From sequence record PQ306573.1: a stretch of DNA of 64,000 nucleotides. One strand, given 5' to 3'. Below, piece after piece: positions 23,331 to 37,741 of this stretch. Positions within the stretch are counted from its first letter, which is position 1. Each line of letters opens with the position of its first letter. The notes beneath the pieces were generated by a model, which was not told the DNA's origin, did not search any database, and saw only the letters and a program-made list of their open reading frames with translations. The DNA is from Escherichia phage vB_EcoM_PTE-Eco05. Position numbers and translations under genes: made by a program.

Positions 23331-24016
<686 letters not shown>

Positions 24017-24029
24017 TTTTCACAAAACA

Positions 24030-24065
24030 GTTTACATAAGGATGATGGTGTGTTACTATCATCCT
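24030..24065 (+). promoter_or_regulatory. early promoter (GTTTAC-N18-TACTAT) with inverted repeat
   Basis: -35 GTTTAC 24030-24035, -10 TACTAT 24054-24059; inverted repeat AGGATGAT/ATCATCCT flanks the -10. Confidence 0.65.
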
Positions 24066-24093
24066 ATCAAATAAACAACCTCAAGGAAATAAA

Positions 24094-24405
24094 ATGAAAA
24101 CCTATCAAGAATTCATCGCGGAAGCTACTAAAGCAGATAAAAATTTTGTTATTAACACTAACGGCCCGTTAGATGATGAATACGCTAATGCTATTATTAA
24201 GTCAATTTCTAATCAAGGCGTTGAAGTATCAAATTTCGAATATAAGAAAAATGATACTTATATGGTAATTAGTATCAAAAAAGGTTCAAAGGCTAAAATT
24301 AAATCTGCATTTGGTGTTATGCGAGTCGACCAAATCGATAACCACGATTTTTCACAAACAGGGGTTAAACGCCAAAATACCATTTCTTCTAAAGGCATAA
24401 AATAA
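24094..24405 (+). CDS. internal protein with capsid-targeting N-terminus (IP family)
   Basis: N-terminus MKTYQEFIAEA matches the T4 internal-protein capsid-targeting/prohead-protease motif; 103 aa; position of ipI. Confidence 0.8.
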   Translation: MKTYQEFIAEATKADKNFVINTNGPLDDEYANAIIKSISNQGVEVSNFEYKKNDTYMVISIKKGSKAKIKSAFGVMRVDQIDNHDFSQTGVKRQNTISSKGIK

Positions 24406-24440
24406 TTTACAACACGATAGGACTATGTTATAGTAGTCCT
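24406..24440 (+). promoter_or_regulatory. early promoter cassette (TTTACA-N17-TATAGT with stem-loop)
   Basis: -35 24406-24411, -10 24429-24434; inverted repeat AGGACTA/TAGTCCT 24419-24440. Confidence 0.65.
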
Positions 24441-24466
24441 ATCAAAACAACCAAATGGAACCTAAA

Positions 24467-24730
24467 ATGAAAACTTTCAACGAATTCATCTCAGAATCAT
24501 CTGGTGTGAAAATTAACAAAGCGGTCAATCAGGTTATTGCTGTTATTCTTAATTTGTATAACATTGACTTAACTCCGCATATCACGCTTGGTAACAAACG
24601 AAACTTTTTCGTATTTGACACATCCGAACTTGATGAAAATCAGTTCAATAACATTCAACGTTTTGCGAATGATAAAGGTCTTCGACACGAGCCTGGTGGC
24701 TATAAAAAATACGCAATATATTTGAAATAA
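24467..24730 (+). CDS. internal protein-like (capsid-targeting N-terminus)
   Basis: Begins MKTFNEFISES; 87 aa. Confidence 0.7.
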   Translation: MKTFNEFISESSGVKINKAVNQVIAVILNLYNIDLTPHITLGNKRNFFVFDTSELDENQFNNIQRFANDKGLRHEPGGYKKYAIYLK

Positions 24731-24732
24731 AG

Positions 24733-24762
24733 GTATACAAGCCTATAGGGTTATGTTATAGT
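24733..24762 (+). promoter_or_regulatory. early promoter cassette (GTATAC-N18-TATAGT)
   Basis: Same TATGTTATAGTAGTCCTATCAAAACAA core as the 24406 cassette. Confidence 0.55.
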
Positions 24763-24799
24763 AGTCCTATCAAAACAAATGAGTAAATGGAGAAATAAA

Positions 24800-24985
24800 A
24801 TGAAACGCGCTGAACTGATTCGTAATGTTGCTGTAGTAATTGCTTCAATGGCTTTTAGTTTTTCGATGTTTGTAGGATTCATTTGTGGACTACTGACAAC
24901 AACTGAAAACTCTATCTCGTTGGTAGTAGCATTTCTAATCGGCTTAATCGCTATCGTTATGGATAAAATTGCAAAAGGTGAGTAA
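24800..24985 (+). CDS. small membrane protein
   Basis: 61 aa from MKRAEL after GGAG; two hydrophobic helices. Confidence 0.6.
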   Translation: MKRAELIRNVAVVIASMAFSFSMFVGFICGLLTTTENSISLVVAFLIGLIAIVMDKIAKGE

Positions 24986-25348
24986 ATGAAATATCATGTA
25001 TATGCAGATTTTGAAGCAAATCCTTCTAAAGACCCTGATTGTCGTTTGATACGCAGACCATTTGATTCAGCAGCTCAAGCCTGGGCCTGGATTAAAACTT
25101 GTACTCCTTCTTACACTTTCTTTGAAGTGGTAGACGATAACGGAGTTCTGCATCCAGAACCTACAGAAACTATTAATTTCCTTCTGTTTGCTGGTTATGA
25201 CTGTTATCCTCTTGGTGGTATTGACGACCTTGTTGCTACAGGAAAAACTGTTGAGGCTCTTCGCGAAATTTATAAAAATGCAGAAGAAAAATTTGACTGG
25301 TATCATATTGTTGATGCTCATACCTTTGAAGTGGTGGAACATTCATGA
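24986..25348 (+). CDS. hypothetical protein
   Basis: 120-aa ORF, tightly packed with neighbours. Confidence 0.6.
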   Translation: MKYHVYADFEANPSKDPDCRLIRRPFDSAAQAWAWIKTCTPSYTFFEVVDDNGVLHPEPTETINFLLFAGYDCYPLGGIDDLVATGKTVEALREIYKNAEEKFDWYHIVDAHTFEVVEHS

Positions 25349-25635
25349 TTCTTTATGCTAAGGTAAAATCCGTTGAGAATGGATATGAAAGTGACCAACG
25401 TGCAGCTAAAGCACTAGTCGATGACTACGGTATTCTGACTAACTTTGAGGTTGAAAAGGTTTACGTCGACCGTTCATCTTCACAGGTTAAATTACTTTGG
25501 GAAGACCGCAAATTTAATAGTGTGAACTTTGATTTCTTTATTGAAACTGAATCAGGCCCTCTTGAATATGATATTTTCAAGAACCCTTTGAAATTACGTT
25601 GCATTGAATATAACTACATTAATATGGTACGGTAA
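25345..25635 (+). CDS. hypothetical protein
   Basis: 96-aa ORF overlapping previous stop (ATGA). Confidence 0.6.
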   Translation: MILYAKVKSVENGYESDQRAAKALVDDYGILTNFEVEKVYVDRSSSQVKLLWEDRKFNSVNFDFFIETESGPLEYDIFKNPLKLRCIEYNYINMVR

Positions 25636-25731
25636 AACGTAATTTGCTTTAAGAATTATGTGTTATTATTAATCTACCCTCTATTACCAAAGGTGCTCCC
25701 TCAAGTGCCTTTCATAATAGAAAGTTATTTA

Positions 25732-25806
25732 GGCCCTGTAGCTCAATGGGAGAGCTGTCAGCTCATAACTGATAGGTAGCTGGATCGAAACCAGCCAGGG
25801 CCACCA
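25732..25806 (+). tRNA. tRNA with CAU anticodon (Met, or Ile if lysidine-modified)
   Basis: Hand fold: 7-bp acceptor GGCCCTG/CAGGGCC, D-arm GCTC..GAGC, anticodon loop CTCATAA, T-arm GCTGG-ATCGAAA-CCAGC, encoded CCA. Confidence 0.8.
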
Positions 25807-25812
25807 AACAAA

Positions 25813-25884
25813 CGGTGCATCGTATAAAGGTTATTACGGGGAGCTGTTAACTCCTTTATCTTGGTTCGAGTCCAAGTGCGCCAG
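25813..25884 (+). tRNA. tRNA-Asn (GUU) candidate
   Basis: Anticodon stem GGGAG/CTCCT with loop CTGTTAA; T-arm CTTGG-TTCGAGT-CCAAG; acceptor has one 1-72 mismatch; no encoded CCA. Confidence 0.55.
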
Positions 25885-25929
25885 TAATTTAAACGAAGTA
25901 AATTAAGTGCTCTATCCAAATAATAAATA

Positions 25930-25948
25930 CTCCTATATTTTATAGGAG
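25930..25948 (+). promoter_or_regulatory. hairpin sequestering the Shine-Dalgarno of the endonuclease gene
   Basis: CTCCTATA-TTT-TATAGGAG inverted repeat includes AGGAG 10 nt before ATG 25959. Confidence 0.5.
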
Positions 25949-25958
25949 ATAATTGGTA

Positions 25959-26625
25959 ATGAGCATTTGTAAACATTGTAATATGGAATTTGATATTTCT
26001 AATAAACCTAAAGGATGGATGGCTAACCACACTAGATGGTGTAAATCCAACCCTAAATTGGAATTGTATAAAGAAAGTTCTAAATCAGCCATTGCAGCAA
26101 TGAATAAAGCACGTATAGCTTCAGGTAATTTAAACCAGTATGTTGTATCTAAAAAAGACTGGTGTTCCTGTAGTAATTTCGGAAGAGACTAGACAAAAAT
26201 TGTCAGCCGCTTCATTAGGTAGAGAACACTCTGAGGAATCTAGAATAAAAATATCTAATGCTCTGAAAAAATGGTTGAATGAAAACCCCGATAAACATCC
26301 TTGGAAGAAAAATACAAAATTTAAATCTGTGCCTTGTGAATTTTTGAAATCTAAATTAATAGAAAACGGAATTTCATTTATTGAAGAATACCAACCGGTT
26401 AAAAACCGAGCGTATTGCACGGATATTGCTTTAATAGATAAAAAGATTATTATTGAAGTTAATGGAAACCAACATTACTCCAATCCTAAGAAAAAGATTT
26501 TGGCCCCTTATTATAAAGAACGCCATGATATTATAAAATCATTAGGATGGGAAATATATGAACTTCATTATGCTGAAGTTTATAAAGAAGATATTGTAAA
26601 TAATTTAATTGCCTCTATAGTGTAA
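25959..26625 (+). pseudogene. frameshifted homing-endonuclease-like gene (Zn-finger + NUMOD3-like + DUF559/Vsr-like nuclease domain)
   Basis: Two overlapping frames (25953..26192 and 26140..26625) join at an A6 run near 26151-26156; NUMOD3-like SEETRQKLSAASLG and SEESRIKISNALK; C-terminal IIEVNGNQHY...ERHDIIKSLGWEIYEL resembles DUF559. Confidence 0.6.
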
Positions 26626-26686
26626 TGGATAGCATATAATCATTCTAAGGTTAATGGTGAGAGTTCAAATCTTTCTAGAGGCACCA
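26611..26686 (+). tRNA. tRNA-Arg (UCU)
   Basis: Acceptor GCCTCTA/TAGAGGC, anticodon loop ATTCTAA, T-arm GAGAG-TTCAAAT-CTTTC, encoded CCA; overlaps last 15 nt of the upstream ORF. Confidence 0.75.
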
Positions 26687-26704
26687 ACTTTAAGTGAGGA
26701 AAAT

Positions 26705-27049
26705 ATGAAAGGCAATATTTATCTGGTAGTTCATGACTTAACGTTTTATTTTAACGAACGTGAAACAGTTATTTCTCATCGATTGATTAATTCGTTATAT
26801 CAACACGCTGATTACGTTTATTTCCAAAATGAATTTGGCCATTGGAAGTTCATTAAAAATCGTTCTGGGTTAACTAGTTTTGAATACTTTGACCGTAAAG
26901 ACCTTTTAAACGAAATCCCATTGCAACATCGGTTCCAGAAACGCGAATCATTATATTATTGCCGTCATATACCAAACGCCGAATGTGTTAATGAAGCGAT
27001 TAATCTATGGCGTCGGCGTCGAGAGCAAATTGATGGTATGCCAAAATAA
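26705..27049 (+). CDS. hypothetical protein
   Basis: 114 aa from MKGNIYLVVHD after GAGGA; ORF track start 26654 would lie inside the tRNA. Confidence 0.6.
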   Translation: MKGNIYLVVHDLTFYFNERETVISHRLINSLYQHADYVYFQNEFGHWKFIKNRSGLTSFEYFDRKDLLNEIPLQHRFQKRESLYYCRHIPNAECVNEAINLWRRRREQIDGMPK

Positions 27050-27217
27050 GAAGCCGGGTCGCTACCGGTAAGTCGTCGGACTGATGTTCCCTGAGTAAGG
27101 ACTGGTCTTAATAAATCTTTACGATTTGTTATTATCCCCTTATATCACAGCAGAAACGGCGCACCGAATTATCGATTCGAGGAAATATCTTTGCCGTAAG
27201 CCGAGTAGCGTTTTTGA

Positions 27218-27309
27218 CGGAACGTTCGGATATGGTCGAGATATGGCCTTTTAAAAATATTGAGTAGCGTCAACTGCTTAATAACCGGGTTCGAATCCCG
27301 GCGTTTCGT
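27218..27309 (+). ncRNA. tRNA-like structured RNA (long-arm tRNA or T4 stable-RNA-like species)
   Basis: Canonical T-arm CCGGG-TTCGAAT-CCCGG with acceptor pairing CGGAACG/CGTTTCG about 92 nt apart; internal arms could not be folded cleanly by hand. Confidence 0.3.
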
Positions 27310-27360
27310 ACAAACACTTGCCTTAGCAGGTGGAACCCCGACAAGGTTGCCGCAAGGCTT

Positions 27361-27388
27361 AGCCCCTTCCGAAAGGTCGGGGCTTTTT
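27361..27388 (+). terminator. rho-independent terminator (family copy 1, GAAA loop)
   Basis: AGCCCCTTCC-GAAA-GGTCGGGGCT followed by TTTTT. Confidence 0.7.
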
Positions 27389-27433
27389 GGCATAATAATA
27401 AATAGATAAGTTAATTAACTTAGGAAAAGCAAC

Positions 27434-27898
27434 ATGAAATCATACGCTGAATTTTTGACTGAACAATCTAGTTCAGATGTAAAAGCCGCTGCGATTGCAG
27501 CAATTCAAGCAGGTAAATATTCTTACAAAGACGCCTCTGATGAAGAACGTTTCCGTTTTATTAGAGATTTTAAAGCCGAAGGTTTTACTAATGCTAATAC
27601 TGTTAGCCGAGTTTTTAAAAGCCTAGCTGCATCAGGTGAATTGTTCCAGAAAGCTACAGGTAAAGCACCTGCGCCAAAAACAGACCCTAAAGCAGCTCAA
27701 GAAAAAAATATCGCCAAAGGAATTATTTCTAAGTATGAAGCAATTCTTAAAGAGCTTTTAGTAATCAAAACAGAAGGCCAGAAACTGGCACGAGCACATA
27801 GCTTCAAAGATAATCCTCACGCTCATAGCCTTGAGTATGTTGAAGATATCCAAAAACTTATTAAAGACCGTATCTGGTCTGCTAAACAAATTAAATAA
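27434..27898 (+). CDS. internal protein-like (capsid-targeting N-terminus)
   Basis: Begins MKSYAEFLTEQ; 154 aa; Ala/Lys-rich. Confidence 0.65.
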   Translation: MKSYAEFLTEQSSSDVKAAAIAAIQAGKYSYKDASDEERFRFIRDFKAEGFTNANTVSRVFKSLAASGELFQKATGKAPAPKTDPKAAQEKNIAKGIISKYEAILKELLVIKTEGQKLARAHSFKDNPHAHSLEYVEDIQKLIKDRIWSAKQIK

Positions 27899-27904
27899 TA
27901 GAAT

Positions 27905-27931
27905 GCCCCTTCCTTATGGTTGGGGCCTTTT
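27905..27931 (+). terminator. rho-independent terminator (family copy 2)
   Basis: GCCCCTTCCTTATGGTTGGGGC then CTTTT, directly after the stop at 27898. Confidence 0.7.
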
Positions 27932-27964
27932 GGTATCTAGGGCATAAAAATATTTCATAAAGAT

Positions 27965-27993
27965 GTTTACTTCTTCTAAGGACATGATACTAT
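27965..27993 (+). promoter_or_regulatory. early promoter (GTTTAC-N17-TACTAT)
   Basis: Upstream of ATG 28022. Confidence 0.6.
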
Positions 27994-28021
27994 AGACTTA
28001 TCAACCATAGAGGAAAATGTT

Positions 28022-28525
28022 ATGAGTCTTTACACTGAACTGAATAAAAAATCTGAAGAATCTGCTGAAACTATTTTTAAAAACGTGCAAAAGCGTATTT
28101 TGGAAAAGATGTACGATGCAGCATCTAAAGGTGAAAAATCTTGCCGGTTTCCGATGAGGTGTTCTTCTGATTTATGCGCAAATACTATTGAATGGCTGGA
28201 AAGTGAAGGTCTTACGGTAGAGAAAAACCCGGCGACTTCTATTGACGGCGAATCATATATTAGTATTTCTTGGGATAAATCAAGGGTAGAAGAGAAAGAT
28301 GGTGATTGGGTTGTAGATGTTAAAACTTCTGATGGTGGACGTTCTGTTGAAGTTTCAGCTGTAGTTAAAGGTACCCACGAACAAAGGACTTGGGGTTGGG
28401 GTGGTGAAGAAAAAGAAATTGTTCTTAGTGTGATTGCCAGGTCAACTAGTAATAAAATTGCACAAAGCATCATTGACGCTGCAATTGCTGAAGCAGAAAA
28501 AATTTGCAAAATTAAAAATAAATGA
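28022..28525 (+). CDS. hypothetical protein
   Basis: 167-aa ORF behind an early promoter. Confidence 0.65.
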   Translation: MSLYTELNKKSEESAETIFKNVQKRILEKMYDAASKGEKSCRFPMRCSSDLCANTIEWLESEGLTVEKNPATSIDGESYISISWDKSRVEEKDGDWVVDVKTSDGGRSVEVSAVVKGTHEQRTWGWGGEEKEIVLSVIARSTSNKIAQSIIDAAIAEAEKICKIKNK

Positions 28526-28554
28526 TGTACAAACGCCAAGGATGGTGGTACTAT
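28525..28554 (+). promoter_or_regulatory. early promoter (ATGTAC-N18-TACTAT)
   Basis: Upstream of ATG 28585; shares the GGTACTATAGACTTATCAAC core with the 27965 promoter. Confidence 0.5.
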
Positions 28555-28584
28555 AGACTTATCAACTACAGAGGAGTAAACAAA

Positions 28585-28749
28585 ATGACTACTTTAATTA
28601 TTTGGTTCGATGAAAATGAAGAAACATACTGTGTGAATATTGGTGAAAGTCCAATGCCTGAATTTGAATCCTCGGATAAAAACTCTGTTGTATCTTGGGC
28701 TGAAGGTTATAAAGCAGCTAAAGGTGACGTTGAAATAATTTACATCTAA
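28585..28749 (+). CDS. small hypothetical protein
   Basis: 54 aa from MTTLIIWFDENEE after AGAGGAG. Confidence 0.55.
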   Translation: MTTLIIWFDENEETYCVNIGESPMPEFESSDKNSVVSWAEGYKAAKGDVEIIYI

Positions 28750-28767
28750 GTAAGTTTATGTTATAGT
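28739..28767 (+). promoter_or_regulatory. early promoter cassette (TTTACA-N17-TATAGT)
   Basis: TATGTTATAGTAGTCCTATCAAA core again; precedes ATG 28796. Confidence 0.6.
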
Positions 28768-28795
28768 AGTCCTATCAAATCAAGAGGAAAACAAA

Positions 28796-29023
28796 ATGGC
28801 TAAAGTTAGTATTGATGTCGTTGATTATGAATACACAGAAGAAGTTATTCGCAACCGCCACCCTGAAGTTCGTATCGATTCAGTCCAAGATTCCAAGTTC
28901 TGGACAACTGAGCTTAATCTGAGTGGTCCTTATGAAGCTGTTAAGAAGTTCATGGTTGAAGAATACTGCGAAGGCATGCACCCCGAAGACGCCAAGTTTT
29001 ATGTCAATTTGATTAAAAAATAA
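28796..29023 (+). CDS. small hypothetical protein
   Basis: 75-aa ORF. Confidence 0.6.
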   Translation: MAKVSIDVVDYEYTEEVIRNRHPEVRIDSVQDSKFWTTELNLSGPYEAVKKFMVEEYCEGMHPEDAKFYVNLIKK

Positions 29024-29070
29024 TTTACAAACTCTTGAGAGCAGAGTATAATGCTCTCATTGGATAATAA
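29023..29070 (+). repeat. 48-bp exact repeat copy 1 (promoter cassette)
   Basis: ATTTACAAACTCTTGAGAGCAGAGTATAATGCTCTCATTGGATAATAAA, identical to 57616..57663. Confidence 0.85.
29024..29059 (+). promoter_or_regulatory. early promoter (TTTACA-N17-TATAAT) with palindrome around -10
   Basis: -35 29024-29029, -10 29047-29052; TGAGAGCA/TGCTCTCA inverted repeat; part of a 48-bp exact repeat. Confidence 0.7.
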
Positions 29071-29093
29071 ACCACCAATTGAAAGGTAATAAT

Positions 29094-29687
29094 ATGAACA
29101 CACTGAAGAAACTTGTCGAATTCATCCGCACTAAACTGGGTACTGCTATGGCTAAAAATCTGACTGTCGAAGAACAGTATAACGCAGCTGCAGATAAGTT
29201 GATTACCCAAATCAAAGAACTAAAAACGGCTTCTGTTAAATCTATTAATGAAGAAAAACGTATTCGCGAACTTGTTAATGAAAAGAACAAGCAAGCCGCT
29301 TCTAAGGAACGTGAAATTCGTAAGCTCCTGGCTGAAGGACAAGATGTTACCATGCATGCTAAGCTTGGTCTTCTGTATCGTCGAACTGCCGAACAACTTA
29401 ATACAAAAGCTGACGGGTATGCCGCTATGCGAATTGAAATTGCTCGTAAGGTGGTTGAACTTGATGATGCTCGTCAGAATCTGGCAATCAAACTCGAATA
29501 CATTCGTGAAACTCGAGCAGCTAATGCCCTTGGTATCTCTACGGCTGACGATGTAATTGAAATCGCTGCACTGACTAAGGTTGATATCGAAGACACTCTG
29601 ACTCGTGTTGAAACGTTCAATGGCACTCAGCCCGGCGTTGAAACCACTTCTGCTGATGTACAAGAATATATTAACTCTTTGAAATAA
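29094..29687 (+). CDS. coiled-coil protein (possible PspA/IM30-like architecture)
   Basis: 197 aa from [10 protein letters not shown]; long heptad-rich helical sequence; codon usage richer in CTG/CGT than neighbours. Confidence 0.6.
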
Positions 29688-29736
29688 AATAATACGGAGG
29701 ACTCCGGTCCTCCTTTTGGATAATAAAGGAGTTAAC

Positions 29737-30333
29737 ATGCGAAACCAAAATAATGATATTGACTCAATGTTCGAAGAGTTCCGAAATAAGGTAAATCCAC
29801 CTACGTCTTTAGTTGATTCATTACGATATGTCGCAACTGGGCGTAAATGGTACTGGTCGTCTTCTTATGAGACAACTGAATATGCAAATAACCGAAAATC
29901 TTTATTAGCCCCAGGTATTATGATTCATGATATCGGAGCTATTGCTAAACTAGTTGCAGACCATGATATTAGATTTACTGATTTCGTTGCTCCTACGTGG
30001 TCTGTTTGTTGTTTAAACACTGAATGGGAATACATCAGTGAACGTTCAGATGATTACGTAGGCTTTAGAGACAAACTTTTAAGGTCTAACATGTTTTATA
30101 TCGATACTGAAGTTCTAGTCAATAATAAAAAATACTACTTCACTTTAATCGTCGATTCTGAAACTATGTATGAAGGCAAGCCTTTGCTTAAAAGAGTTGA
30201 TGCTTTAAGTGCTATTGATGCTCTTTATGAAACTATGGTTGTTAGTCCTAATTTCACTAACAATTTAATCCTTGAGCAATTTATTATGGAATGTAGAGAA
30301 TATGTCAAAGCCAACCCTGTACATGCCAATTAA
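29737..30333 (+). CDS. hypothetical protein
   Basis: 198 aa from MRNQNNDID after AAGGAG. Confidence 0.6.
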   Translation: MRNQNNDIDSMFEEFRNKVNPPTSLVDSLRYVATGRKWYWSSSYETTEYANNRKSLLAPGIMIHDIGAIAKLVADHDIRFTDFVAPTWSVCCLNTEWEYISERSDDYVGFRDKLLRSNMFYIDTEVLVNNKKYYFTLIVDSETMYEGKPLLKRVDALSAIDALYETMVVSPNFTNNLILEQFIMECREYVKANPVHAN

Positions 30334-30535
30334 GCCATGGGCATACGAATACAAACGTAAATTAATCCCAAACGAAGTACTATTTGGCCCTATTTTAGCT
30401 TTAGCATTTTTAATCTTTATGATTATAGGAGCTGTTTTAGATTCTAGTGAAGTTATATCGTCTGATGCAGTGTTTTTACTTATAGCCGGGTCGTTTATTG
30501 TGCCATTTTTATTAATGCCTATTAATTGGGTGTGA
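30302..30535 (+). CDS. small membrane protein
   Basis: 77 aa; two transmembrane-like segments; start region duplicates that of the 30784 gene. Confidence 0.5.
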   Translation: MSKPTLYMPIKPWAYEYKRKLIPNEVLFGPILALAFLIFMIIGAVLDSSEVISSDAVFLLIAGSFIVPFLLMPINWV

Positions 30536-30694
30536 TATTGGTACCAAGGCCGTCATCACAGAGCCCGATTAAGAGAATGGAAAGTTCAGTGCGCAAAAGC
30601 CCAGTATGATGAAGCTGTTAAAAAGTATGAATATGACGAAGCCATGGAATTCGTTAAGGAGATAAGATGCAAAAGCCTGAACTGAATTTATGCT

Positions 30695-30724
30695 GTTTAC
30701 GCTTCTCAAATGATTAGTTATAAT
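30695..30724 (+). promoter_or_regulatory. early promoter (GTTTAC-N18-TATAAT)
   Basis: In the 250-bp intergenic region upstream of 30784. Confidence 0.6.
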
Positions 30725-30783
30725 GAACTCCTAACTAGACGTGAAAATGAAACAATCGAAAACTTTATTAAGGAATGTAGAAA

Positions 30784-31089
30784 ATGAGTAAGATTATCGA
30801 AATTAAAGTACCAGAGTTTAATGATGCCAAATCCGCTTCAGATGCAATTTATAAACTTCTGAATCAAGCTGAACGTATCGAAGAAGAAGCAACAAAGATC
30901 GCAGACCAATATGCCGTACCATTTTCTGTAGGTGATTATGGTAGCGGTCGTACTTATTATCCTAAGGGTGAAATCGTATCCCAGTGGATGAAAAATGAAA
31001 TTGAAAATAATGGTGGTGATGTTAAGCGTGAAGGTAATGGTTACGTTATTACTGAAGGTGCTTGGGTTTCGTCTTCTGCGTTGTGCTAA
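30784..31089 (+). CDS. small protein, paralog 1 (C-terminal GAWVSSSALC)
   Basis: 101 aa; shares a C-terminal G-W-V-[SA]-S-S-x-x-C motif with the next two ORFs. Confidence 0.65.
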   Translation: MSKIIEIKVPEFNDAKSASDAIYKLLNQAERIEEEATKIADQYAVPFSVGDYGSGRTYYPKGEIVSQWMKNEIENNGGDVKREGNGYVITEGAWVSSSALC

Positions 31090-31098
31090 GGAATCATT

Positions 31099-31371
31099 AT
31101 GTCTAAAGAACAAACCGAACTGGCTGAAGCTGTAGCAAAAATCTATGCAGCTATTGAGGCTGCCAAAGAAATTGCTGATAAACAAAACACAACATTCGAC
31201 TTGTATCCGGCTTATGGTATGGGTGGAACCTATCATTCACCAGGACATCTTAAAGCCGATCTTGAACGTTGTACAAAAAACGGCTATGCTGAATGGGCTG
31301 ACGTTTACCAATACGACTACAACCTGAGCCTTGAAGATGGCGGTTGGGTTGCATCTTCTCACACTTGCTAA
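31099..31371 (+). CDS. small protein, paralog 2 (C-terminal GGWVASSHTC)
   Basis: 90 aa; same C-terminal motif. Confidence 0.65.
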   Translation: MSKEQTELAEAVAKIYAAIEAAKEIADKQNTTFDLYPAYGMGGTYHSPGHLKADLERCTKNGYAEWADVYQYDYNLSLEDGGWVASSHTC

Positions 31372-31380
31372 GGAAACAAT

Positions 31381-31578
31381 ATGTCTCGTGAATTAGATTG
31401 TGCTGTACGTACGGCAGTAGCTGCCCTGGAAAACCTGTTCCAAATTGCAACAGAAGAACGCGAAGAAGTTACATTATGGATTGAAGATAACGCAGGTCTG
31501 AATCTCCAGGACGCGATCTCATTATCCCACAATAGTATCACTATTCAAGGCTGGGTATCATCTAGTTATTCTTGCTAA
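31381..31578 (+). CDS. small protein, paralog 3 (C-terminal QGWVSSSYSC)
   Basis: 65 aa; same C-terminal motif. Confidence 0.65.
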   Translation: MSRELDCAVRTAVAALENLFQIATEEREEVTLWIEDNAGLNLQDAISLSHNSITIQGWVSSSYSC

Positions 31579-31582
31579 AACA

Positions 31583-31612
31583 GTTTACAACAAGATAGGG
31601 CTATGTTATAGT
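31583..31612 (+). promoter_or_regulatory. early promoter cassette (GTTTAC-N18-TATAGT)
   Basis: GGGCTATGTTATAGTAGTCCTATCAAA core. Confidence 0.6.
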
Positions 31613-31640
31613 AGTCCTATCAAATTAAATGGAGTCCACA

Positions 31641-31880
31641 ATGATTTATTACGAAAGTATCGGAACCAAAGTGGTTGTTAAAACCATTACTCGTGAAAAG
31701 TTTGCAAAGATATTCGATATGCGTTATAAAAAATCTGAACACAAAGGCATCCGATTCGAAGATGCGCACTGTACAATTTGCCCTTATAATGAAGACATAA
31801 ACGGTACAATCGTTCCATTGGTAGAGGCTTCACACGATGACCTCTGGGATGAATATGATATCGCATGTCGTGAAATTTAA
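31641..31880 (+). CDS. small Cys-containing hypothetical protein
   Basis: 79 aa from MIYYESIG after GGAG; HCTICP motif. Confidence 0.55.
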   Translation: MIYYESIGTKVVVKTITREKFAKIFDMRYKKSEHKGIRFEDAHCTICPYNEDINGTIVPLVEASHDDLWDEYDIACREI

Positions 31881-31908
31881 GTTAATGAATTAATCCGAGG
31901 AAAATATT

Positions 31909-32865
31909 ATGATGTTAGTTATTGGTTCTCGTGCACTTCACTATCATGGTCTTATTGATTCTAGCGCTATCAAAAATAGCGATTGGGACTTTATTGCGGA
32001 CCAAGGTTCTTGGAATGCATTCAAAAATCAAATGATGGGTGTATATGTCCACCAAGATAACCCTGATGTCCAAATTTTCAAATGCTTCCATAATGGACGC
32101 GAAACTCATTTTGAAGCATATATTGTTCCGGCAATCACTAATGTCCGTGAATTAGTCGGTGAACTCACTCCTGAAGATTTCACGTCTTCTTATGACCTTT
32201 TAAAATACGCCAAGAAAAATTTGACTAAAGACCGTTTGAACGGGTTTTACTGGGCAACTCCTGAGATATGTCTTGCAATTAAGATGTCTCATCGTTTCAA
32301 GAAAAATAATCCATTCTTTTTAAAGACTATGAACCATATTCAGTATCTTCGTGGTAAAGGTGTTACACTGAACGATGAACTTACTGAAATTATGCTGAAA
32401 CGCCAGAAAGAAACCTTGAACTATGCTCACCCAGTTCTTGACACTTCTAAAAGTGCGTTCTTTAAAGATGACATCTATACATATGACCATGATACTATTC
32501 ATGAAGCCATTGCACTAACAGACCGTCCAGCGTATACATTTTATATGAAAGATGGTTCTGAAGTCATGACCTCACGCGAGAAGTTCGAATCGTTACCGGA
32601 AATGATTAAACTGGCCGGTGTATACGAAGAATCATGTGTACTAGCATTAGAACGTTCTCAGATTCCTAATGACTTTAAAATTAACCCTGAAGCCAGTTTC
32701 ATGATGGCATTGGAAAAAGTCTGTACAAGCATCACCTCCGGTTGGTTCCGTGAGTATGCCTGGGAAAACTACAGCAAAGTAGTAAGTATGTACCAAAGCT
32801 TAGGACATGATGATTACGTCAAACGTTTCAAACAAAATTTCCATATTGTAAAACCTTTCAAATAA
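31909..32865 (+). CDS. hypothetical protein with N-terminal nucleotidyltransferase-like G-S...D-x-D motif
   Basis: 318 aa; VIGSRALHYHGLIDSSAIKNSDWDF near N-terminus; spacing is longer than the canonical Pol-beta NTase motif, so tentative. Confidence 0.55.
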   Translation: MMLVIGSRALHYHGLIDSSAIKNSDWDFIADQGSWNAFKNQMMGVYVHQDNPDVQIFKCFHNGRETHFEAYIVPAITNVRELVGELTPEDFTSSYDLLKYAKKNLTKDRLNGFYWATPEICLAIKMSHRFKKNNPFFLKTMNHIQYLRGKGVTLNDELTEIMLKRQKETLNYAHPVLDTSKSAFFKDDIYTYDHDTIHEAIALTDRPAYTFYMKDGSEVMTSREKFESLPEMIKLAGVYEESCVLALERSQIPNDFKINPEASFMMALEKVCTSITSGWFREYAWENYSKVVSMYQSLGHDDYVKRFKQNFHIVKPFK

Positions 32866-32877
32866 TTTCGCAAAACT

Positions 32878-32907
32878 GTTTACACAATTATAGGATTATG
32901 TTATAGT
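32878..32907 (+). promoter_or_regulatory. early promoter cassette (GTTTAC-N18-TATAGT)
   Basis: GGATTATGTTATAGTAAGTCCTATTAAAACA core. Confidence 0.6.
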
Positions 32908-32936
32908 AAGTCCTATTAAAACATGAGGAGAATATT

Positions 32937-33242
32937 ATGAAATTAGGCGAAACCAACCGAATTGGTCTTTTAACAATATTTGCATCACCATTTTACGCAG
33001 CTCTTTCTGTTGCAGTATTACAAAAGGCTTACAGTATGGATGGTGTTCCTGGTTTTGTATTCTTATCACCGTTTTTATTATTCGTCGGAGCTTTGTTATT
33101 ATATGCCACGACTAGTTTCGACCATAATGTCTGGGTCAATTATAAATGTAAATTGACCGAAGAAGAACACGCAGAAGCTCGTAAAAAAGCTATTGAATCT
33201 ACCAATCTAGAAAATTTCATTAAAGAATGTCGAGGAAAATAA
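32937..33242 (+). CDS. small membrane protein
   Basis: 101 aa, two hydrophobic helices. Confidence 0.6.
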   Translation: MKLGETNRIGLLTIFASPFYAALSVAVLQKAYSMDGVPGFVFLSPFLLFVGALLLYATTSFDHNVWVNYKCKLTEEEHAEARKKAIESTNLENFIKECRGK

Positions 33243-33243
33243 T

Positions 33244-33930
33244 ATGAATAGTTCTAAAGTGTTTAATAGTCAAGCTCGTGCAGTAGGTGGTTTTGCTCAT
33301 GCGATTAAAAACGACCAGATTAAAAACGAGCCTATGTTCTTTAACTGCGATTTAAATTTTGCTTTTGATAATGGCGGCCCAATTACTCGTAGCTTTATCC
33401 AAAATCTTCCTGACGATTGGAAAGACTCGGATGTAGTATTTGATTCACGAGTCCACATGCTGATGCCTGGTTGGTACCCTGCTATTCCTGGATATCACCA
33501 TGATGATATTCCTCGCCCTGATATTCCAGTTGGTCAACACTTTATTACTGCAGGACAACCTGACTATGACAATCCTCGCTATTTGTCTGAACATATTCTT
33601 GGTCTTGTTAACGCTGATGTGTGTCCTACTCATTTTGCAACAGGAACTGCAGAGTTCAGTCAGATTCCTGATGGCGAACTTATCTATCGTCAGTGGCACA
33701 AAGAAGTCCTCGAAAAAATTGAAAAAGGTGAACTAGAGAAATGGGAAGCTCCAGATCGTACTCTTCTTCAGTTTGATTGGCAAACATGGCACACTGGTTC
33801 TCGTGCAATTAGTAACGGATGGCGTTGGTTCGGACGTGTATCTCGTAGTACAGACCGAGTTAAAAAGATTACCAATGAAATTCGTGTCAACGCCCAAGTT
33901 TATCTGGAATTCCCTATGGAAGGCTGGTAA
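33244..33930 (+). CDS. hypothetical protein (His/Asp-rich)
   Basis: 228 aa; GYHHDD...CPTHF could be metal-binding; family unknown. Confidence 0.55.
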   Translation: MNSSKVFNSQARAVGGFAHAIKNDQIKNEPMFFNCDLNFAFDNGGPITRSFIQNLPDDWKDSDVVFDSRVHMLMPGWYPAIPGYHHDDIPRPDIPVGQHFITAGQPDYDNPRYLSEHILGLVNADVCPTHFATGTAEFSQIPDGELIYRQWHKEVLEKIEKGELEKWEAPDRTLLQFDWQTWHTGSRAISNGWRWFGRVSRSTDRVKKITNEIRVNAQVYLEFPMEGW

Positions 33931-34421
33931 TGATACAGAAAATTCACTGGTCAAACATGGACGATGGCGACGAAGGTATTTCATACTATTCAGTAGGATG
34001 GACAGGATGTCCATCCTACTTAGTGAAACACCATTGTCAAGCATTTAAAATCGACAAACCAGCAGGTATTATCGTGAACAGATACATTAATGGATATCAA
34101 CCTATCGATGAAGTAATACGAACAACTCAAGCTGAGCTTGAAAAGTTTTTCAATAAGTGCCAATGGATAACAGGATGGATTATATTTGTACCGTCGGTAT
34201 GGTTTTTCGGTACTAAGGTGAGTTCTTTCGGTTTTGTTGATATTATCGCTATCTTATTAGCATCTACTATCGTAAGTATTATTGGTGGTATTATTGGTGG
34301 AGGTACTGTAGGCATCATTATTAATCTTGTTAAAAGTAGTTTACAGGAACGTAAAGACAAGATAAAGGCCAAGAATAATGAAGTTGAACGTTTTATTACC
34401 GAATGCAGGAATTTGAGATGA
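33930..34421 (+). CDS. membrane protein with N-terminal soluble domain
   Basis: 163 aa; Gly-rich C-terminal transmembrane region (IIGGIIGGGTVGIIINL). Confidence 0.6.
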   Translation: MIQKIHWSNMDDGDEGISYYSVGWTGCPSYLVKHHCQAFKIDKPAGIIVNRYINGYQPIDEVIRTTQAELEKFFNKCQWITGWIIFVPSVWFFGTKVSSFGFVDIIAILLASTIVSIIGGIIGGGTVGIIINLVKSSLQERKDKIKAKNNEVERFITECRNLR

Positions 34422-34654
34422 GTATAGCAATTTACATTAAATCAGAATCATGTGATAGTTACCTGTACACATACGATAAAGATGTGTCAGAAGAAAAAAT
34501 CAAAGACGACCTTAATATGGACCTTGATATGTTCTGTCCTATTGCAGATTACAAACTTGCGGTCTCTAATAGTGAAAGTCCATCTAAAGAAACGCGCATT
34601 GAAGAATTTATGTCCGAATTAATGGCCAAATCATGGGACCGAGATGATGAGTAA
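34418..34654 (+). CDS. small acidic protein
   Basis: 78 aa from MSIAIYIKSES after AGGA. Confidence 0.5.
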   Translation: MSIAIYIKSESCDSYLYTYDKDVSEEKIKDDLNMDLDMFCPIADYKLAVSNSESPSKETRIEEFMSELMAKSWDRDDE

Positions 34655-35102
34655 GAAAAATAAAGCGAAAGAACTATCAGCCGGTATTATTTTCCTTACC
34701 GAAGATAAAGAATTATTCATGGGGCGTGTAACTGGTTCTCGTCCTAAAGGTGCATTAGCTCATCGGTGGGATATTCCTAAAGGACGTGTCGAGCCCGGTG
34801 AATCTCCTATTGAAGCCGCTATTCGCGAATGCGAAGAAGAAACTGGGTTTACACAATATGACCCTGCCTTCCTGAAAGACCTAGGTGAACATCATTACTC
34901 AGACAATAAGAATATACATCTGTTCCTATATACCATCCCTGTAGAGCACGAGCAATTCAGAAACAGTATTTGTAATTCATATCATACATTCCCAGACGGA
35001 CGTCAGATTCCTGAATTTGATGCATTCGCTTTAATTAAACCTTCTCAATGGGAATATGTGATGGGCAAATCATTATATAAGGTGCTCACTACCCTACTAT
35101 AA
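34644..35102 (+). CDS. nudE: Nudix hydrolase (NudE / e.1-like)
   Basis: Nudix box GRVEPGESPIEAAIRECEEETG; 152 aa; immediately upstream of e. Confidence 0.88.
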   Translation: MMSKKNKAKELSAGIIFLTEDKELFMGRVTGSRPKGALAHRWDIPKGRVEPGESPIEAAIRECEEETGFTQYDPAFLKDLGEHHYSDNKNIHLFLYTIPVEHEQFRNSICNSYHTFPDGRQIPEFDAFALIKPSQWEYVMGKSLYKVLTTLL

Positions 35103-35136
35103 GTAATAAATACCTCCTATAAACATGGGAGGTATT

Positions 35137-35625
35137 ATGAATATATTTGAAATGCTTCGTAATGACGAAGGTCTTAGACTGACTTTATACAAAGACACTG
35201 AAGGCTTTTGGACGATTGGCATAGGCCATTTGGTAACAAAGAACCCGTCTTTAGCCGTAGCTAAAGCTGAACTTGACAGAATGATCGGTCGTAAATGCAA
35301 CGGTACAATTACCCTTGATGAGGCTGAAAAGCTATTTAACGAAGACGTTGATAAAGCCGTTCGCGGAATCTTGGGTAATGCTAAACTTAAACCGGTATAT
35401 GATTCTTTAGATGCGGTTCGTCGATGTGCATTGGTCAATATGGTCTTCCAAATGGGTGTAGCAGGCGTCGCTGGTTTTACTAATTCTCTTCGTATGCTTC
35501 AACAGAAACGTTGGGATGAAGCGGCAGTAAATCTAGCCCAATCTAAATGGTATCGTCAGACACCTAATCGCGCGAAACGCGTAATCTCAACATTTAAAAC
35601 AGGAACTTGGAAAGCGTATATATGA
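35137..35625 (+). CDS. e: endolysin (T4 lysozyme)
   Basis: 162 aa, [32 protein letters not shown]..., close to recalled T4 lysozyme. Confidence 0.96.
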
Positions 35626-35903
35626 AAACATATAGTGAATTTTTATCAGAATCTATTCTTAGCGAAGCTACCGACACATTTGCAACTAAGCTAGGTGCAG
35701 CTTTGGTTGAAGCCGAAAGTCTATTAGCACGTATTTCTGAACTTGCTAGTAAGATAGATACTCGCAAATTTGAACGTACCAGCGATATCGCTAAGCTTGA
35801 AGCCTTGTTACGTATGTGCGATAAACCGGAAGAAATCGCTAAGAACGGCTCGCTGATGAAACAACGTCTTGAAAAATATATTTCAGGCGCTTCAGAAAAA
35901 TAG
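35622..35903 (+). CDS. internal protein-like (capsid-targeting N-terminus)
   Basis: [14 protein letters not shown] overlaps the e stop (ATGA); 93 aa. Confidence 0.7.
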
Positions 35904-35904
35904 T

Positions 35905-35957
35905 GTTTACTTCCTCCAAGGACTTTGATACTATACATTCATCAACTACTTGGAGGA
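35905..35957 (+). promoter_or_regulatory. early promoter with anti-Shine-Dalgarno spacer (TCCTCCAAG ... CTTGGAGGA)
   Basis: -35 GTTTAC 35905-35910, -10 TACTAT 35929-35934; 9-bp inverted repeat whose 3-prime arm is the denV ribosome-binding site. Confidence 0.6.
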
Positions 35958-35961
35958 AATT

Positions 35962-36375
35962 ATGACTCGTATCAATTTAACACTTGTTTCTGAACTGACC
36001 GACCAACATCTTATGGCTGAGTATCGTGAATTACCACGCGTATTTGGTGCAGTCCGTAAACATGTTCAAAACGGTAAACGTGTAAAGGATTTTAAAATCT
36101 CTCCAACATTTATCTTAGGCGCAGGTCATGTAACATTCTTTTACGACAAACTCGAATTTTTACGTTTACGTCAAATCGAGCTAATCGCCGAATGTTTGAA
36201 ACGTGGTTTCAAAATCAAGGACACGACTGTCCAGGATATTTCCGACATCCCTGCCGAATTTCGTAATAATTATGTCCCGTCCGAAGCGTCCATTGCGATA
36301 AGTCAAGCACGCTTAGATGAAAAAATTGCTCAACGTCCGACTTGGTACAAATACTATGGTAAATCAATTTACTAA
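35962..36375 (+). CDS. denV: endonuclease V (pyrimidine dimer DNA glycosylase)
   Basis: 137 aa, [31 protein letters not shown]..., close to recalled T4 DenV. Confidence 0.95.
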
Positions 36376-36381
36376 GGAAAA

Positions 36382-36642
36382 ATGAAAATGTATCAAGAAT
36401 TTATCATTGAAGCAGATGCCAAAGGTCCTAAATTTAAAGTTAAAGCTTTCATTGGTGATGCGGAAGATTTTGGCTCATTAAAACGTAATGGGTACTTTTT
36501 CTTAGGTGGCGATGGTAAAGAAATCAACACCTATGCAAAACGTAGTGAAATTGCTTATGTTGTAGCAAGTCCTAAAGTAGATGTTGACGATATTGGATAC
36601 GATTTTAACAACTTCGGAATTATTTCTGGCGGTAAAGCTTAA
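36382..36642 (+). CDS. internal protein-like (capsid-targeting N-terminus)
   Basis: MKMYQEFIIEA; 86 aa. Confidence 0.65.
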   Translation: MKMYQEFIIEADAKGPKFKVKAFIGDAEDFGSLKRNGYFFLGGDGKEINTYAKRSEIAYVVASPKVDVDDIGYDFNNFGIISGGKA

Positions 36643-36645
36643 ATT

Positions 36646-36675
36646 GTTTACGCTTAAGTATTAATATGGTATAAT
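36646..36675 (+). promoter_or_regulatory. early promoter (GTTTAC-N18-TATAAT)
   Basis: Upstream of ATG 36706. Confidence 0.6.
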
Positions 36676-36705
36676 TACTCTATCAAAACAAACAAGGAAA
36701 CAAAA

Positions 36706-37284
36706 ATGAAAACATATAAAGAATTTATCGCCGAGGCCTTTGCAGGAAAAGCTCAAGGCATTAATAAGGACGAGTGGACTTATCGTGGCGGAAACGGCTT
36801 TGACCCTAAAACAGCTCCTATTGAACGGTACTTAGCTACAAAGGCTTCCGACTTTAAAGCCTTCGCTTGGGAAGGACTTCGCTGGCGTAACGATCTAAAT
36901 ATTGAAGTTGACGGTCTTAAATTTGCTCATATTGAAGATGTTGTTGCTAGTAACTTAGACGCAGCTTTTGTTAAAGCCGACAGTGACCTTCGTCGTTGGA
37001 ATTTAAAACTGTTCTCTAAACAAAAAGGCCCGAAGTTTGTGCCTAAAGCCGGTAAATGGGTTATTGATAATAAATTAGCTAAGGCTGTCAACTACGCTGG
37101 TCTTGAATTCGCCAAACACAAATCATCATGGAGAAGTCTTGATGCAATGGCTTTCCGTAAAGAATTTGCCGATGTTATGACTAAAGGCGGCTTTAAGGCA
37201 GAAATAGATACCTCTAAAGGTACGTTTAAAGACGCTAATGTTCAGTACGCTTACGCCGTTGCCAATGCAGCCCGTAATTCCTAA
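36706..37284 (+). CDS. internal protein, IPIII-like by size
   Basis: MKTYKEFIAEA; 192 aa (T4 IPIII is about 194 aa). Confidence 0.75.
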   Translation: MKTYKEFIAEAFAGKAQGINKDEWTYRGGNGFDPKTAPIERYLATKASDFKAFAWEGLRWRNDLNIEVDGLKFAHIEDVVASNLDAAFVKADSDLRRWNLKLFSKQKGPKFVPKAGKWVIDNKLAKAVNYAGLEFAKHKSSWRSLDAMAFRKEFADVMTKGGFKAEIDTSKGTFKDANVQYAYAVANAARNS

Positions 37285-37325
37285 TAAAGCTAATACTCAG
37301 ACCTATTTACATTTAAAGGAAACAT

Positions 37326-37628
37326 ATGAAAACATATCAAGAATTTATTACTGAAGCGCGAGTGAGTGCAGGTAAATTAGAAGCCGCTATAAATAAAAAG
37401 GCCCATTCATTTCATGATTTGTCCGATAAAGACCGTAAGAAACTTGTAAGCCTTTATATTGACAAAGAGCGTATTCTCGCTCTTCCTGGCGCTAATGAAG
37501 GTAAACAGGCCAAGCCTTTGAATGCTGTCGAAAAGAAAATTGATAACTTTGCTTCTAAATTCGGTATGTCTATGGATGACCTTCAGCAAGCGGCTATCGA
37601 AGCAGCTAAAGTAATTAAAGGTAAATAA
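37326..37628 (+). CDS. internal protein, IPII-like by size
   Basis: MKTYQEFITEA; 100 aa; resembles recalled T4 IPII. Confidence 0.75.
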   Translation: MKTYQEFITEARVSAGKLEAAINKKAHSFHDLSDKDRKKLVSLYIDKERILALPGANEGKQAKPLNAVEKKIDNFASKFGMSMDDLQQAAIEAAKVIKGK

Positions 37629-37741
37629 CAGTTTACTTTCTCCTAGAATTGTGATAGTATATTCATAATTACTTGGAGTGGTAAATACAGAAATGGACAA
37701 TTCATGCGCCACGGAATGGCCCAACCTAAAAGAGAAACTAA

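Follow-up and report, generated by a model that had tools for sequence, protein, structure and literature searches.

How many genes for head-packaged, injected internal proteins (Ips) does a T-even phage keep, and what are their products for? The question arises in Escherichia phage vB_EcoM_PTE-Eco05, of which we analyzed a 64,000-nt stretch (record PQ306573.1), referred to as the window herein. Between positions 24,094 and 37,628 an earlier note, made from the letters alone, had picked out seven open reading frames (ORFs), each designated here by its start position, that open with MK[TSM][YF]xEF[IL]xE, and had read this motif as the T4-type signal for packaging into the head and cleavage there. 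The explanation we consider very likely is that the seven ORFs are the full Ip gene set of an RB69-like T-even phage, and we infer that their products are packaged, cleaved, injected and mostly directed against host defenses. Both the gene family and its anti-defense role are already known, and for six of the seven genes at least one relative carries an internal head protein annotation.

Seven genes with a common N-terminal signal

A six-frame regular-expression scan of the window returned exactly seven matches to MK[TSM][YF]xEF[IL]xE, at 24094, 24467, 27434, 35622, 36382, 36706 and 37326. These are the ORFs that the earlier note had listed; all lie on the + strand, with the motif at the start of ORFs of 86 to 192 amino acids. 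The same seven, with no additions, were recovered by a looser pattern (M[KR]x[YFW]x[ED][FYW][ILVM]xE) and by the core lacking its Met ([YF]xEF[ILVM]xE), and with a still looser N-terminal pattern the sole addition was an unrelated ORF at 45609. Upon shuffling the sequence 100 times, the strict pattern did not occur at all and the core pattern occurred 0.15 times on average. A purine-rich ribosome-binding sequence was found 5 to 10 nt upstream of every one of the seven. The mechanically listed longest ORFs at 24455 and 35607 begin upstream of the motif, and the choice of the motif Met (24467 and 35622) as the start in the earlier note is sensible.

Targeting by the T4 capsid targeting sequence (CTS) depends on residues 4 and 7, and its processing on residues 8 and 10, with Asp10 blocking the latter (PMC9026906, summarizing Mullaney & Black 1996), and the first ten residues of T4 IpIII are enough for packaging (PMC9026906). 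Tyr/Phe4, Phe7, Ile/Leu8 and Glu10 are present in all seven ORFs, so that the similarity extends through [IL]8-x-Glu10, the predicted protease site, in each of them. This agrees with the earlier reading of the motif as a T4-type targeting and cleavage signal, to the extent that sequence can indicate one. Residues 8-10, in ORF order, are IAE, ISE, LTE, LSE, IIE, IAE and ITE, followed at position 11 by A, S, Q, S, A, A and A. The conserved residues are written with varied synonymous codons (TTC/TTT, ATC/ATT/TTG/TTA, GAA/GAG, ACC/ACT/ACA/TCA), implying selection on the peptide and not on the DNA. Since the pattern demands Glu10, it misses T4-type Ip1 with its 19-residue propeptide (MKTYKEFISPD...LTE); no Ip1-type ORF was found in the 64 kb window.

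Six of the seven genes belong to named Ip families (IpIII, IpII, Ip7, Ip9, ORF127c and ORF125c), 27434 being the exception (Table 1). The products of 36706 and 37326 are orthologues of T4 IpIII (93.8% amino acid and 91.1% nucleotide identity; phrog_5341, E=2e-117) and T4 IpII (94.7% and 94.4%; phrog_7857, E=5e-55), respectively. The other four match PHROG families labeled 'internal head protein' at E=1e-20 to 1e-48. Gene 24094 (phrog_2667, E=7e-39) lies at the classical ipI locus, which is flanked by 57B/Acb1 and trna.4. Its product shows 95.7% identity to mogra_128 ('internal head protein 7') and 67.8% to Ip7 of Shf125875, whose record cites RB15 Ip7 (CAA84464). The second gene of that locus, 24467 (phrog_7673, E=5e-48), matches mogra_129, 'Ip9 putative internal head protein [VR7]', with 96% identity. 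In mogra the 35622 product (phrog_3499, E=6e-46) is labeled 'putative internal head protein'; RefSeq NC_025437 and other records drop the 'putative'. For 36382, which sits between denV and ipIII (phrog_2667, E=5e-20), the label is 'internal head protein' in RefSeq (NC_025437, Shf125875, VR20, VR25, IME340 and others) and 'hypothetical' in many records. Several database entries of the 36382 family (mogra_155; 12415-12669 of locus L002; P0010 and P0012) start two codons late, at MYQEF..., so that the Met-Lys of the CTS is lost and the motif is hidden. The predicted mature parts are basic in five cases (pI 9.35-9.7) and near-neutral in the two others, 35622 and 36382.

The 14 kb stretch shares 96.5% identity with Escherichia phage mogra and about 95% with other Mosigvirus (RB69-like T-even) phages, the genus to which the window, with a G+C content of ∼37%, belongs by sequence. 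Across the complete mogra genome we found these seven CTS ORFs and no more, so that the window probably contains the whole set. Genes for the prohead core, the scaffold and the major capsid protein are present in mogra as well; the window stops short of the gene 20-24 region. The earlier note had called the family expanded, and this holds relative to T4 itself, which has three Ip genes, and not otherwise, as mogra has the same set of seven genes.

The 27434 family and the signal in distant phages

Unlike its six counterparts, 27434 has a locus of its own, the third, on the downstream side of the tRNA/rnaD/rnaC cluster. We found homologues in 511 phage records, and all 40 of those sampled call the protein 'hypothetical', as does RefSeq; its PHROG family (phrog_2280) is of 'unknown function'. 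A homologue occupies the equivalent position in Tequatrovirus ime09, and T4 lacks the gene at that site. Two copies of a terminator-like hairpin (repeat family D15), 81% identical and 543 nt apart, bracket 27434 exactly. Together with the absence of the gene from T4, this looks like insertion of a cassette at a terminator. Among the homologues, a CTS-like N-terminus is kept down to 47% identity while C-terminal halves have been exchanged, and those at 47-60% identity retain [FY]xEFLxE. Large-database searches gave narrow families for 27434 (9 clusters) and for 36382 (11 clusters), and an exhaustive representative search for 27434 added just five further distant relatives. We conclude that 27434 probably encodes an unrecognized Ip at a third locus, judging from its start and surroundings. 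No virion proteomics for a phage carrying a 27434 homologue was found in the literature, and phiR1-RT, the phage with published particle data discussed below, has no such homologue.

To follow the motif beyond close relatives, we scanned IMG/VR with a degenerate DNA pattern for this N-terminal tag, which gave at least 129 matches on at least 120 loci (L006-L125). At least 118 complete ORFs of at least 57 amino acids begin with the tag, and nearly all listed matches fall at ORF starts, the ORFs ranging from 57 to 966 amino acids. The mature parts of the listed environmental ORFs and of the seven window proteins form at least 63 clusters. Position 11, which the pattern leaves free, is Ser or Ala in 61% of 113 environmental CTS ORFs among the matches listed, as expected after a gp21 site. 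The listed mature parts have a median pI of 9.6, with 68% above 8.5. Distant T4-type genes (24-44% amino acid identity) accompany the tag on 80 of the 120 loci listed. Some of the listed cargo has enzyme domains, including ART-PolyVal, GNAT, nucleotidyl-/cytidylyl-transferase, 2H/LigT/Acb1-like and methyltransferase domains. One environmental CTS family also occurs in cultured cyanomyoviruses, where the relative in cyanophage S-SM2 starts MKTLGQFLAE..., and the body of another has a relative in jumbo phage PA5oct that mass spectrometry has confirmed as a structural protein. That the tag heads very diverse proteins in distant environmental T4-like phages may be a modestly new point. A broader proposal, in which 27434 encodes a genuine injected Ip and MK[TS][FY]xEF[ILVM]xE is a superfamily-wide loading signal that exposes injected repertoires, enzyme cargo included, is tentative, and we regard it as somewhat doubtful in its joint form.

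Mature proteins, probable targets and competing explanations

In the scheme that best accounts for these genes, the ten-residue CTS of each precursor would bind the scaffolding core through Tyr/Phe4 and Phe7 during prohead assembly, and cleavage by the prohead protease gp21 after Glu10 of [IL]-x-E would release the mature proteins, small and for the most part basic, within the head. If T4 is a guide, each particle would contain a few hundred copies of every Ip alongside the DNA and would inject both when it next infects a cell, ahead of phage gene expression. The injected Ips would most likely serve as stoichiometric inhibitors of defenses that attack incoming modified DNA, above all the diverse GmrSD type IV enzymes, with each Ip blocking one GmrSD subtype. 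Their genes sit in hyperplastic loci and would be swapped between phages as cassettes flanked by terminator repeats or by promoter/stem-loop elements of the PeSL type.

Precedent for this scheme comes from T4. This phage injects Ip1, Ip2 and Ip3, every one of which inhibits a GmrSD type IV enzyme of its own and gives no protection against the targets of the other two (PMC12373910, 2025); Ip3 inhibits the ECOR17 GmrSD and Ip2 the ECOR21 GmrSD (PMC12373910). RB69 DNA contains arabinosyl-hydroxymethylcytosine and is cut by GmrSD, and T-evens 'package a diverse family of inhibitors of type IV REs' (restriction enzymes; PMC6024577). Arabinose-pathway genes are annotated in mogra, and by analogy with RB69 and mogra the DNA of the window phage probably carries arabinosyl- and not glucosyl-hydroxymethylcytosine. 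Homology to proteins with demonstrated GmrSD inhibition is confined to 36706 (Ip3) and 37326 (Ip2), and on the strength of that similarity the two orthologues very probably inhibit the Ip3 and Ip2 targets. By analogy, the other five would neutralize other defense variants. The earlier note had suggested a diversified, co-injected anti-defense set, which is the accepted view (PMC3012670, PMC6024577, PMC12373910); reviews state it for the diverse CTS-sharing injected proteins of T-evens (PMC3012670, PMC9026906), resting on Repoila et al. 1994. The novelty that the note implied is not supported, as 'more than 30' Ip variants (PMC2839356, citing Comeau et al. 2007) or 'at least 10' (PMC12373910) were known already.

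The mature parts proved to be as dissimilar as the earlier note had stated, at the sensitivity available. In an all-versus-all BLASTP of residues 11 to the end we observed no convincing pair, the best being 24094 with 24467 (E=0.004 in the seven-sequence database). Phrog_2667 is common to 24094 and 36382, which may reflect a distant relationship. A hidden kinship of Ip7 and 36382 was considered on that basis and dropped, as hhalign without the first ten residues gave a probability of 0.2%. BLASTP detected no similarity of the mature parts of 24094, 24467, 27434, 35622 and 36382 to Ip1, Ip2 or Ip3. Sequence searches of the PDB with all seven proteins, including against the deposited IPI* structure, returned nothing significant, and Pfam, NCBIfam and PADLOC gave sub-threshold noise with no recognizable catalytic domain. 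Structure prediction, which the earlier note had recommended for each protein body, covered two of them. For 27434, AlphaFold2 gave a moderate model (predicted local distance difference test score, pLDDT, 72.8) in which a Pro/Lys-rich linker connects two helical modules, and Foldseek found no PDB match to it with E below 1. The model of 36382, built from four sequences only (pLDDT 46.7), was unusable for a fold search.

Particle data exist for Yersinia phage phiR1-RT, whose corresponding region contains three CTS ORFs: IpIII, IpII and an unannotated 52-amino acid protein, Gp134 (MKTYIEFINE). Published liquid chromatography-tandem mass spectrometry of purified phiR1-RT particles lists 25, 14 and 2 unique peptides for these, respectively. 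Its g134 (L133 14421-14579) sits between tRNA genes, a further probable Ip near a tRNA cluster.

Several observations weigh against packaging, processing or an anti-defense role for some or all of the seven. The phiR1-RT virion list includes obvious carry-over proteins and is hence supportive without being decisive. Extra internal [LI]xE triplets in four of the seven proteins make the mature ends uncertain, and the near-neutral mature parts of 35622 and 36382 depart from the typical basic Ip profile. Five proteins have no sequence similarity to IPI*, Ip2, Ip3 or solved structures, and the 27434 model has no fold match in the PDB, so their targets need not be restriction enzymes. Lastly, no canonical T4 late promoter (TATAAATA) was found within 200 nt upstream of any of the seven, and one-mismatch sites were no more frequent than background. 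The late synthesis needed for prohead loading must then come from read-through or coupling, and it is here that the packaging model, judged from sequence alone, is weakest.

That the motif recurs by chance, as a low-complexity artefact of an AT-rich genome in which some of the ORFs are not genes, has practically no probability left. The base composition and the shortness of several ORFs (86-103 amino acids) would speak for it, but shuffling yielded none of the seven matches observed, all of which stand at coding-strand ORF starts behind ribosome-binding sites. Conserved homologues of all seven occur in many phages, and with the PHROG matches and the shuffles they refute this explanation. A more substantive suggestion is that for some genes, especially 27434, the shared 5' end is a recombination or translation-initiation cassette and not a working CTS, the proteins being cytoplasmic and unpackaged. 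The similarity does run into the 5' untranslated region, as a 43-nt repeat family (D2; ribosome-binding site plus CTS codons) with 70-79% identity; PeSL and terminator repeats, known to mediate shuffling, bracket the genes; and the preceding promoters are early-type, not late. Against it, the conserved residues are spelled with different synonymous codons, and the motif, with its Ser/Ala-rich position 11, is kept in phages with 24-44% core-gene amino acid identity, where nucleotide homology is gone. The 27434 homologues likewise keep [FY]xEFLxE as the rest of the protein diverges, and the unannotated CTS ORF Gp134 was found in virions. We therefore consider this suggestion highly improbable.

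The Ips could also be packaged and mainly serve the particle, as scaffold-core helpers or as basic counter-ions for DNA condensation or ejection, with anti-defense activity in a few members. Such a role is compatible with, and does not exclude, the counter-defense explanation; as the principal function we judge it unlikely, though far less so than a mere 5' cassette. It draws on the strongly basic character of five of the seven mature parts and of most environmental CTS cargo among the matches listed, some of which is Lys/Arg-rich and of low complexity (the S-SM2 homologue), and on T4 IpIII mutants, which have half the head-assembly rate, ∼40% burst size and more polyheads (PMC9026906). However, T4 can do without any one of Ip1, Ip2 or Ip3 on laboratory hosts, each of these proteins acts on a specific GmrSD enzyme (PMC12373910), and two of the window proteins are not basic. 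A particle-serving role also leaves unexplained the unrelated, fast-turnover mature parts, such as Ip1 and Ip7 without IpIII in Shf125875 versus Ip7, Ip9 and IpIII in the window.

Hypervariable loci, known systems and implications

The genes are arranged in the order 57A - 57B (Acb1) - 24094 - 24467 - trna.4/.3/.2 - tRNAs - rnaD/rnaC - 27434 - e.x genes - nudE - e - 35622 - denV - 36382 - 36706 - 37326 - vs.8. Six of the seven CTS genes thus fall in two hyperplastic Ip loci, 57B-trna.4 and the e/denV/vs.8 region. Six copies of a promoter/stem-loop element of 50-65 nt occur in the region (Table 1), three of them bracketing Ip7 and Ip9, and they fit the PST/T4 PeSL consensus TTTACW-N17-TAYWAT (PMC4122927). 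The copy between Ip7 and Ip9 is based on repeat families D1/D3, inverted repeats I2/I6 and a promoter-scan match of 10/12 with TG. PeSL-like elements have already been described at 'two highly variable IP loci' (PMC2839356). A second repeat type, likewise an early-type promoter plus stem-loop, is present at 27975-28008, 28536-28569 and 35916-35949; both families are intergenic elements of 30-65 nt, scattered across the hyperplastic region and flanking Ip genes.

Table 1. Candidate Ip genes and associated elements in the window, and example tag-headed ORFs from IMG/VR
Feature	Coordinates	Strand	Details
Ip7 (103 aa)	24094..24405	+	propeptide MKTYQEFIAE, predicted cut before A11; mature 93 aa, pI 9.5
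Ip9-like internal head protein (87 aa)	24467..24730	+	propeptide MKTFNEFISE, predicted cut before S11; mature 77 aa, pI 9.35
Unnamed CTS-bearing protein (154 aa)	27434..27898	+	propeptide MKSYAEFLTE, predicted cut before Q11; mature 144 aa, pI 9.6
RB69ORF127c-type internal head protein (93 aa)	35622..35903	+	second LSE at 13-15, predicted cut before S11 or A16; mature part near-neutral, pI 6.3
RB69ORF125c-type internal head protein (86 aa)	36382..36642	+	propeptide MKMYQEFIIE, predicted cut before A11; mature pI 6.4
IpIII orthologue (192 aa)	36706..37284	+	propeptide MKTYKEFIAE, predicted cut before A11; mature pI 9.6
IpII orthologue (100 aa)	37326..37628	+	propeptide MKTYQEFITE, predicted cut before A11; mature pI 9.7
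PeSL-type cassette upstream of Ip7	24024..24075	+	early-type promoter TTTACA-17-TACTAT overlapping stem-loop; repeat family D3, promoter scan
PeSL-type cassette between Ip7 and Ip9	24399..24450	+	TTTACA-17-TATAGT inside palindrome GATAGGACTA...TAGTCCTATC
PeSL-type cassette downstream of Ip9	24717..24781	+	repeat families D1/D4
Further PeSL-type copies	28722-28786, 31567-31631, 32865-32908		repeats
Early-type promoter upstream of ipIII	36645..36675	+	TTTACG-17-TATAAT (promoter scan)
Terminator-like hairpin, left copy	27362..27393	+	end of rnaD/rnaC region; D15; terminator-scan match 27367-27382
Terminator-like hairpin, right copy	27905..27936	+	directly after 27434 stop codon; D15
Example tag-headed ORFs, IMG/VR loci	L063:6037-6816, L090:3231-4268, L019:3988-4524, L111:390-1289, L041:933-1586, L033:8454-11354

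Early-type promoters (TTTACA/G-17-TAtAgT) lie upstream of 24094, 24467 and 36706. Genes 35622, 36382 and 37326 seem to share transcripts with e, denV and ipIII, respectively. The start codon of 35622 overlaps the stop of the lysozyme gene e (ATGA, 35622-35625), suggesting translational coupling, and the 41 nt that separate ipIII from ipII contain no promoter-like site. The ipIII/ipII module (36694-37661), with its 91.1%/94.4% nucleotide identity to T4, stands out against flanks (57B/1, e/nudE, denV and vs.8) at 69-83%, and it lies on the opposite side of denV relative to T4. This combination suggests a recent exchange of the module between Tequatrovirus and Mosigvirus. We also observed metagenomic variants (P0009, P0019 and P0020) that encode fusions across deletion junctions. 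In one, a trna.3-like N-terminus precedes the last 32 amino acids of the 27434 protein, and in another the N-terminus of DenV runs into the C-terminus of the 36382 protein; such fusions point to frequent deletion and recombination at Ip loci.

Among the neighboring genes, 57B (23561-24016), just upstream of Ip7/Ip9, encodes the anti-CBASS nuclease Acb1 (Pfam E=6.5e-59), and its position makes the locus a small anti-defense island. Nine unique peptides of phiR1-RT Gp57B were reported from purified virions, which may be carry-over. The non-coding segment 27044-27393 is 92% identical to the rnaD/rnaC region of T4 (species 2 and species 1 stable RNA); Rfam returned three tRNAs only and no family above threshold at 27044-27393. 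Between tRNA-Asn and tRNA-Arg, at a site analogous to that of T4 segB, an insert (25953-26625) contains a homing-endonuclease-like ORF (26140-26625; NUMOD3 plus DUF559/RAP) preceded by an overlapping Cys-rich ORF of 79 amino acids. Mogra has neither the endonuclease insertion nor tRNA-Asn at the corresponding site. Three tandem small paralogous ORFs (101, 90 and 65 amino acids) at 30784-31578 end in a conserved G-x-W-V-[SA]-S-S-x-x-C motif, with repeated junctions (family D11).

Compared with the T4 Ip system, the window shares the targeting and cleavage signal, two direct orthologues at 94-95% amino acid identity, small and mostly basic mature proteins, and the similar neighborhoods 57B-ip-trna.4 and e-denV-ip-vs.8. 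It differs in having seven Ip genes in place of three, in lacking Ip1, with Ip7 and Ip9 holding the ipI locus, and in carrying two extra members flanking denV and one after the tRNA/rnaC cluster, with ipIII/ipII across denV. The polymorphic T-even Ips (Ip4 onwards), a series from which 24094 and 24467 take their names, likewise combine unrelated mature proteins behind a common CTS with hypervariable, PeSL-flanked loci, and we see nothing different in kind. The exception is the 27434 family, which lies outside the 'two highly variable IP loci' and which no sampled record labels as an Ip. T4 Alt, the SPN3US/phiKZ ejection proteins and P1 Dar are also packaged in the head, injected and active at the very start of infection, and T4 Alt (an ADP-ribosyltransferase) and the SPN3US ejection proteins are trimmed by a prohead protease. 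In contrast to the seven small proteins of the window, these are large, often enzymatic, and use different targeting sequences.

For the window itself, the outcome is mainly a clean annotation, in which seven genes are read as Ips, two of them with known GmrSD targets by homology. Small practical gains are the re-labeling of the 'hypothetical' 27434 family as a probable Ip and the spotting of late starts in 36382 entries. Injected Ips are a first-line counter-defense, being active ahead of all phage transcription. Knowledge of the whole Ip set of a phage makes it easier to foresee its range of wild hosts and thereby to choose T-even phages for therapy. Far outside the coliphages, too, packaged cargo seems to be recognizable by the simple N-terminal rule. 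If this is true, enzyme cargo such as the ART-PolyVal ADP-ribosyltransferase and the Acb1/LigT-like 2H phosphoesterase would pre-empt defenses beyond type IV restriction, and the injected-effector repertoire of uncultured T4-like phages would be readable directly from sequence.

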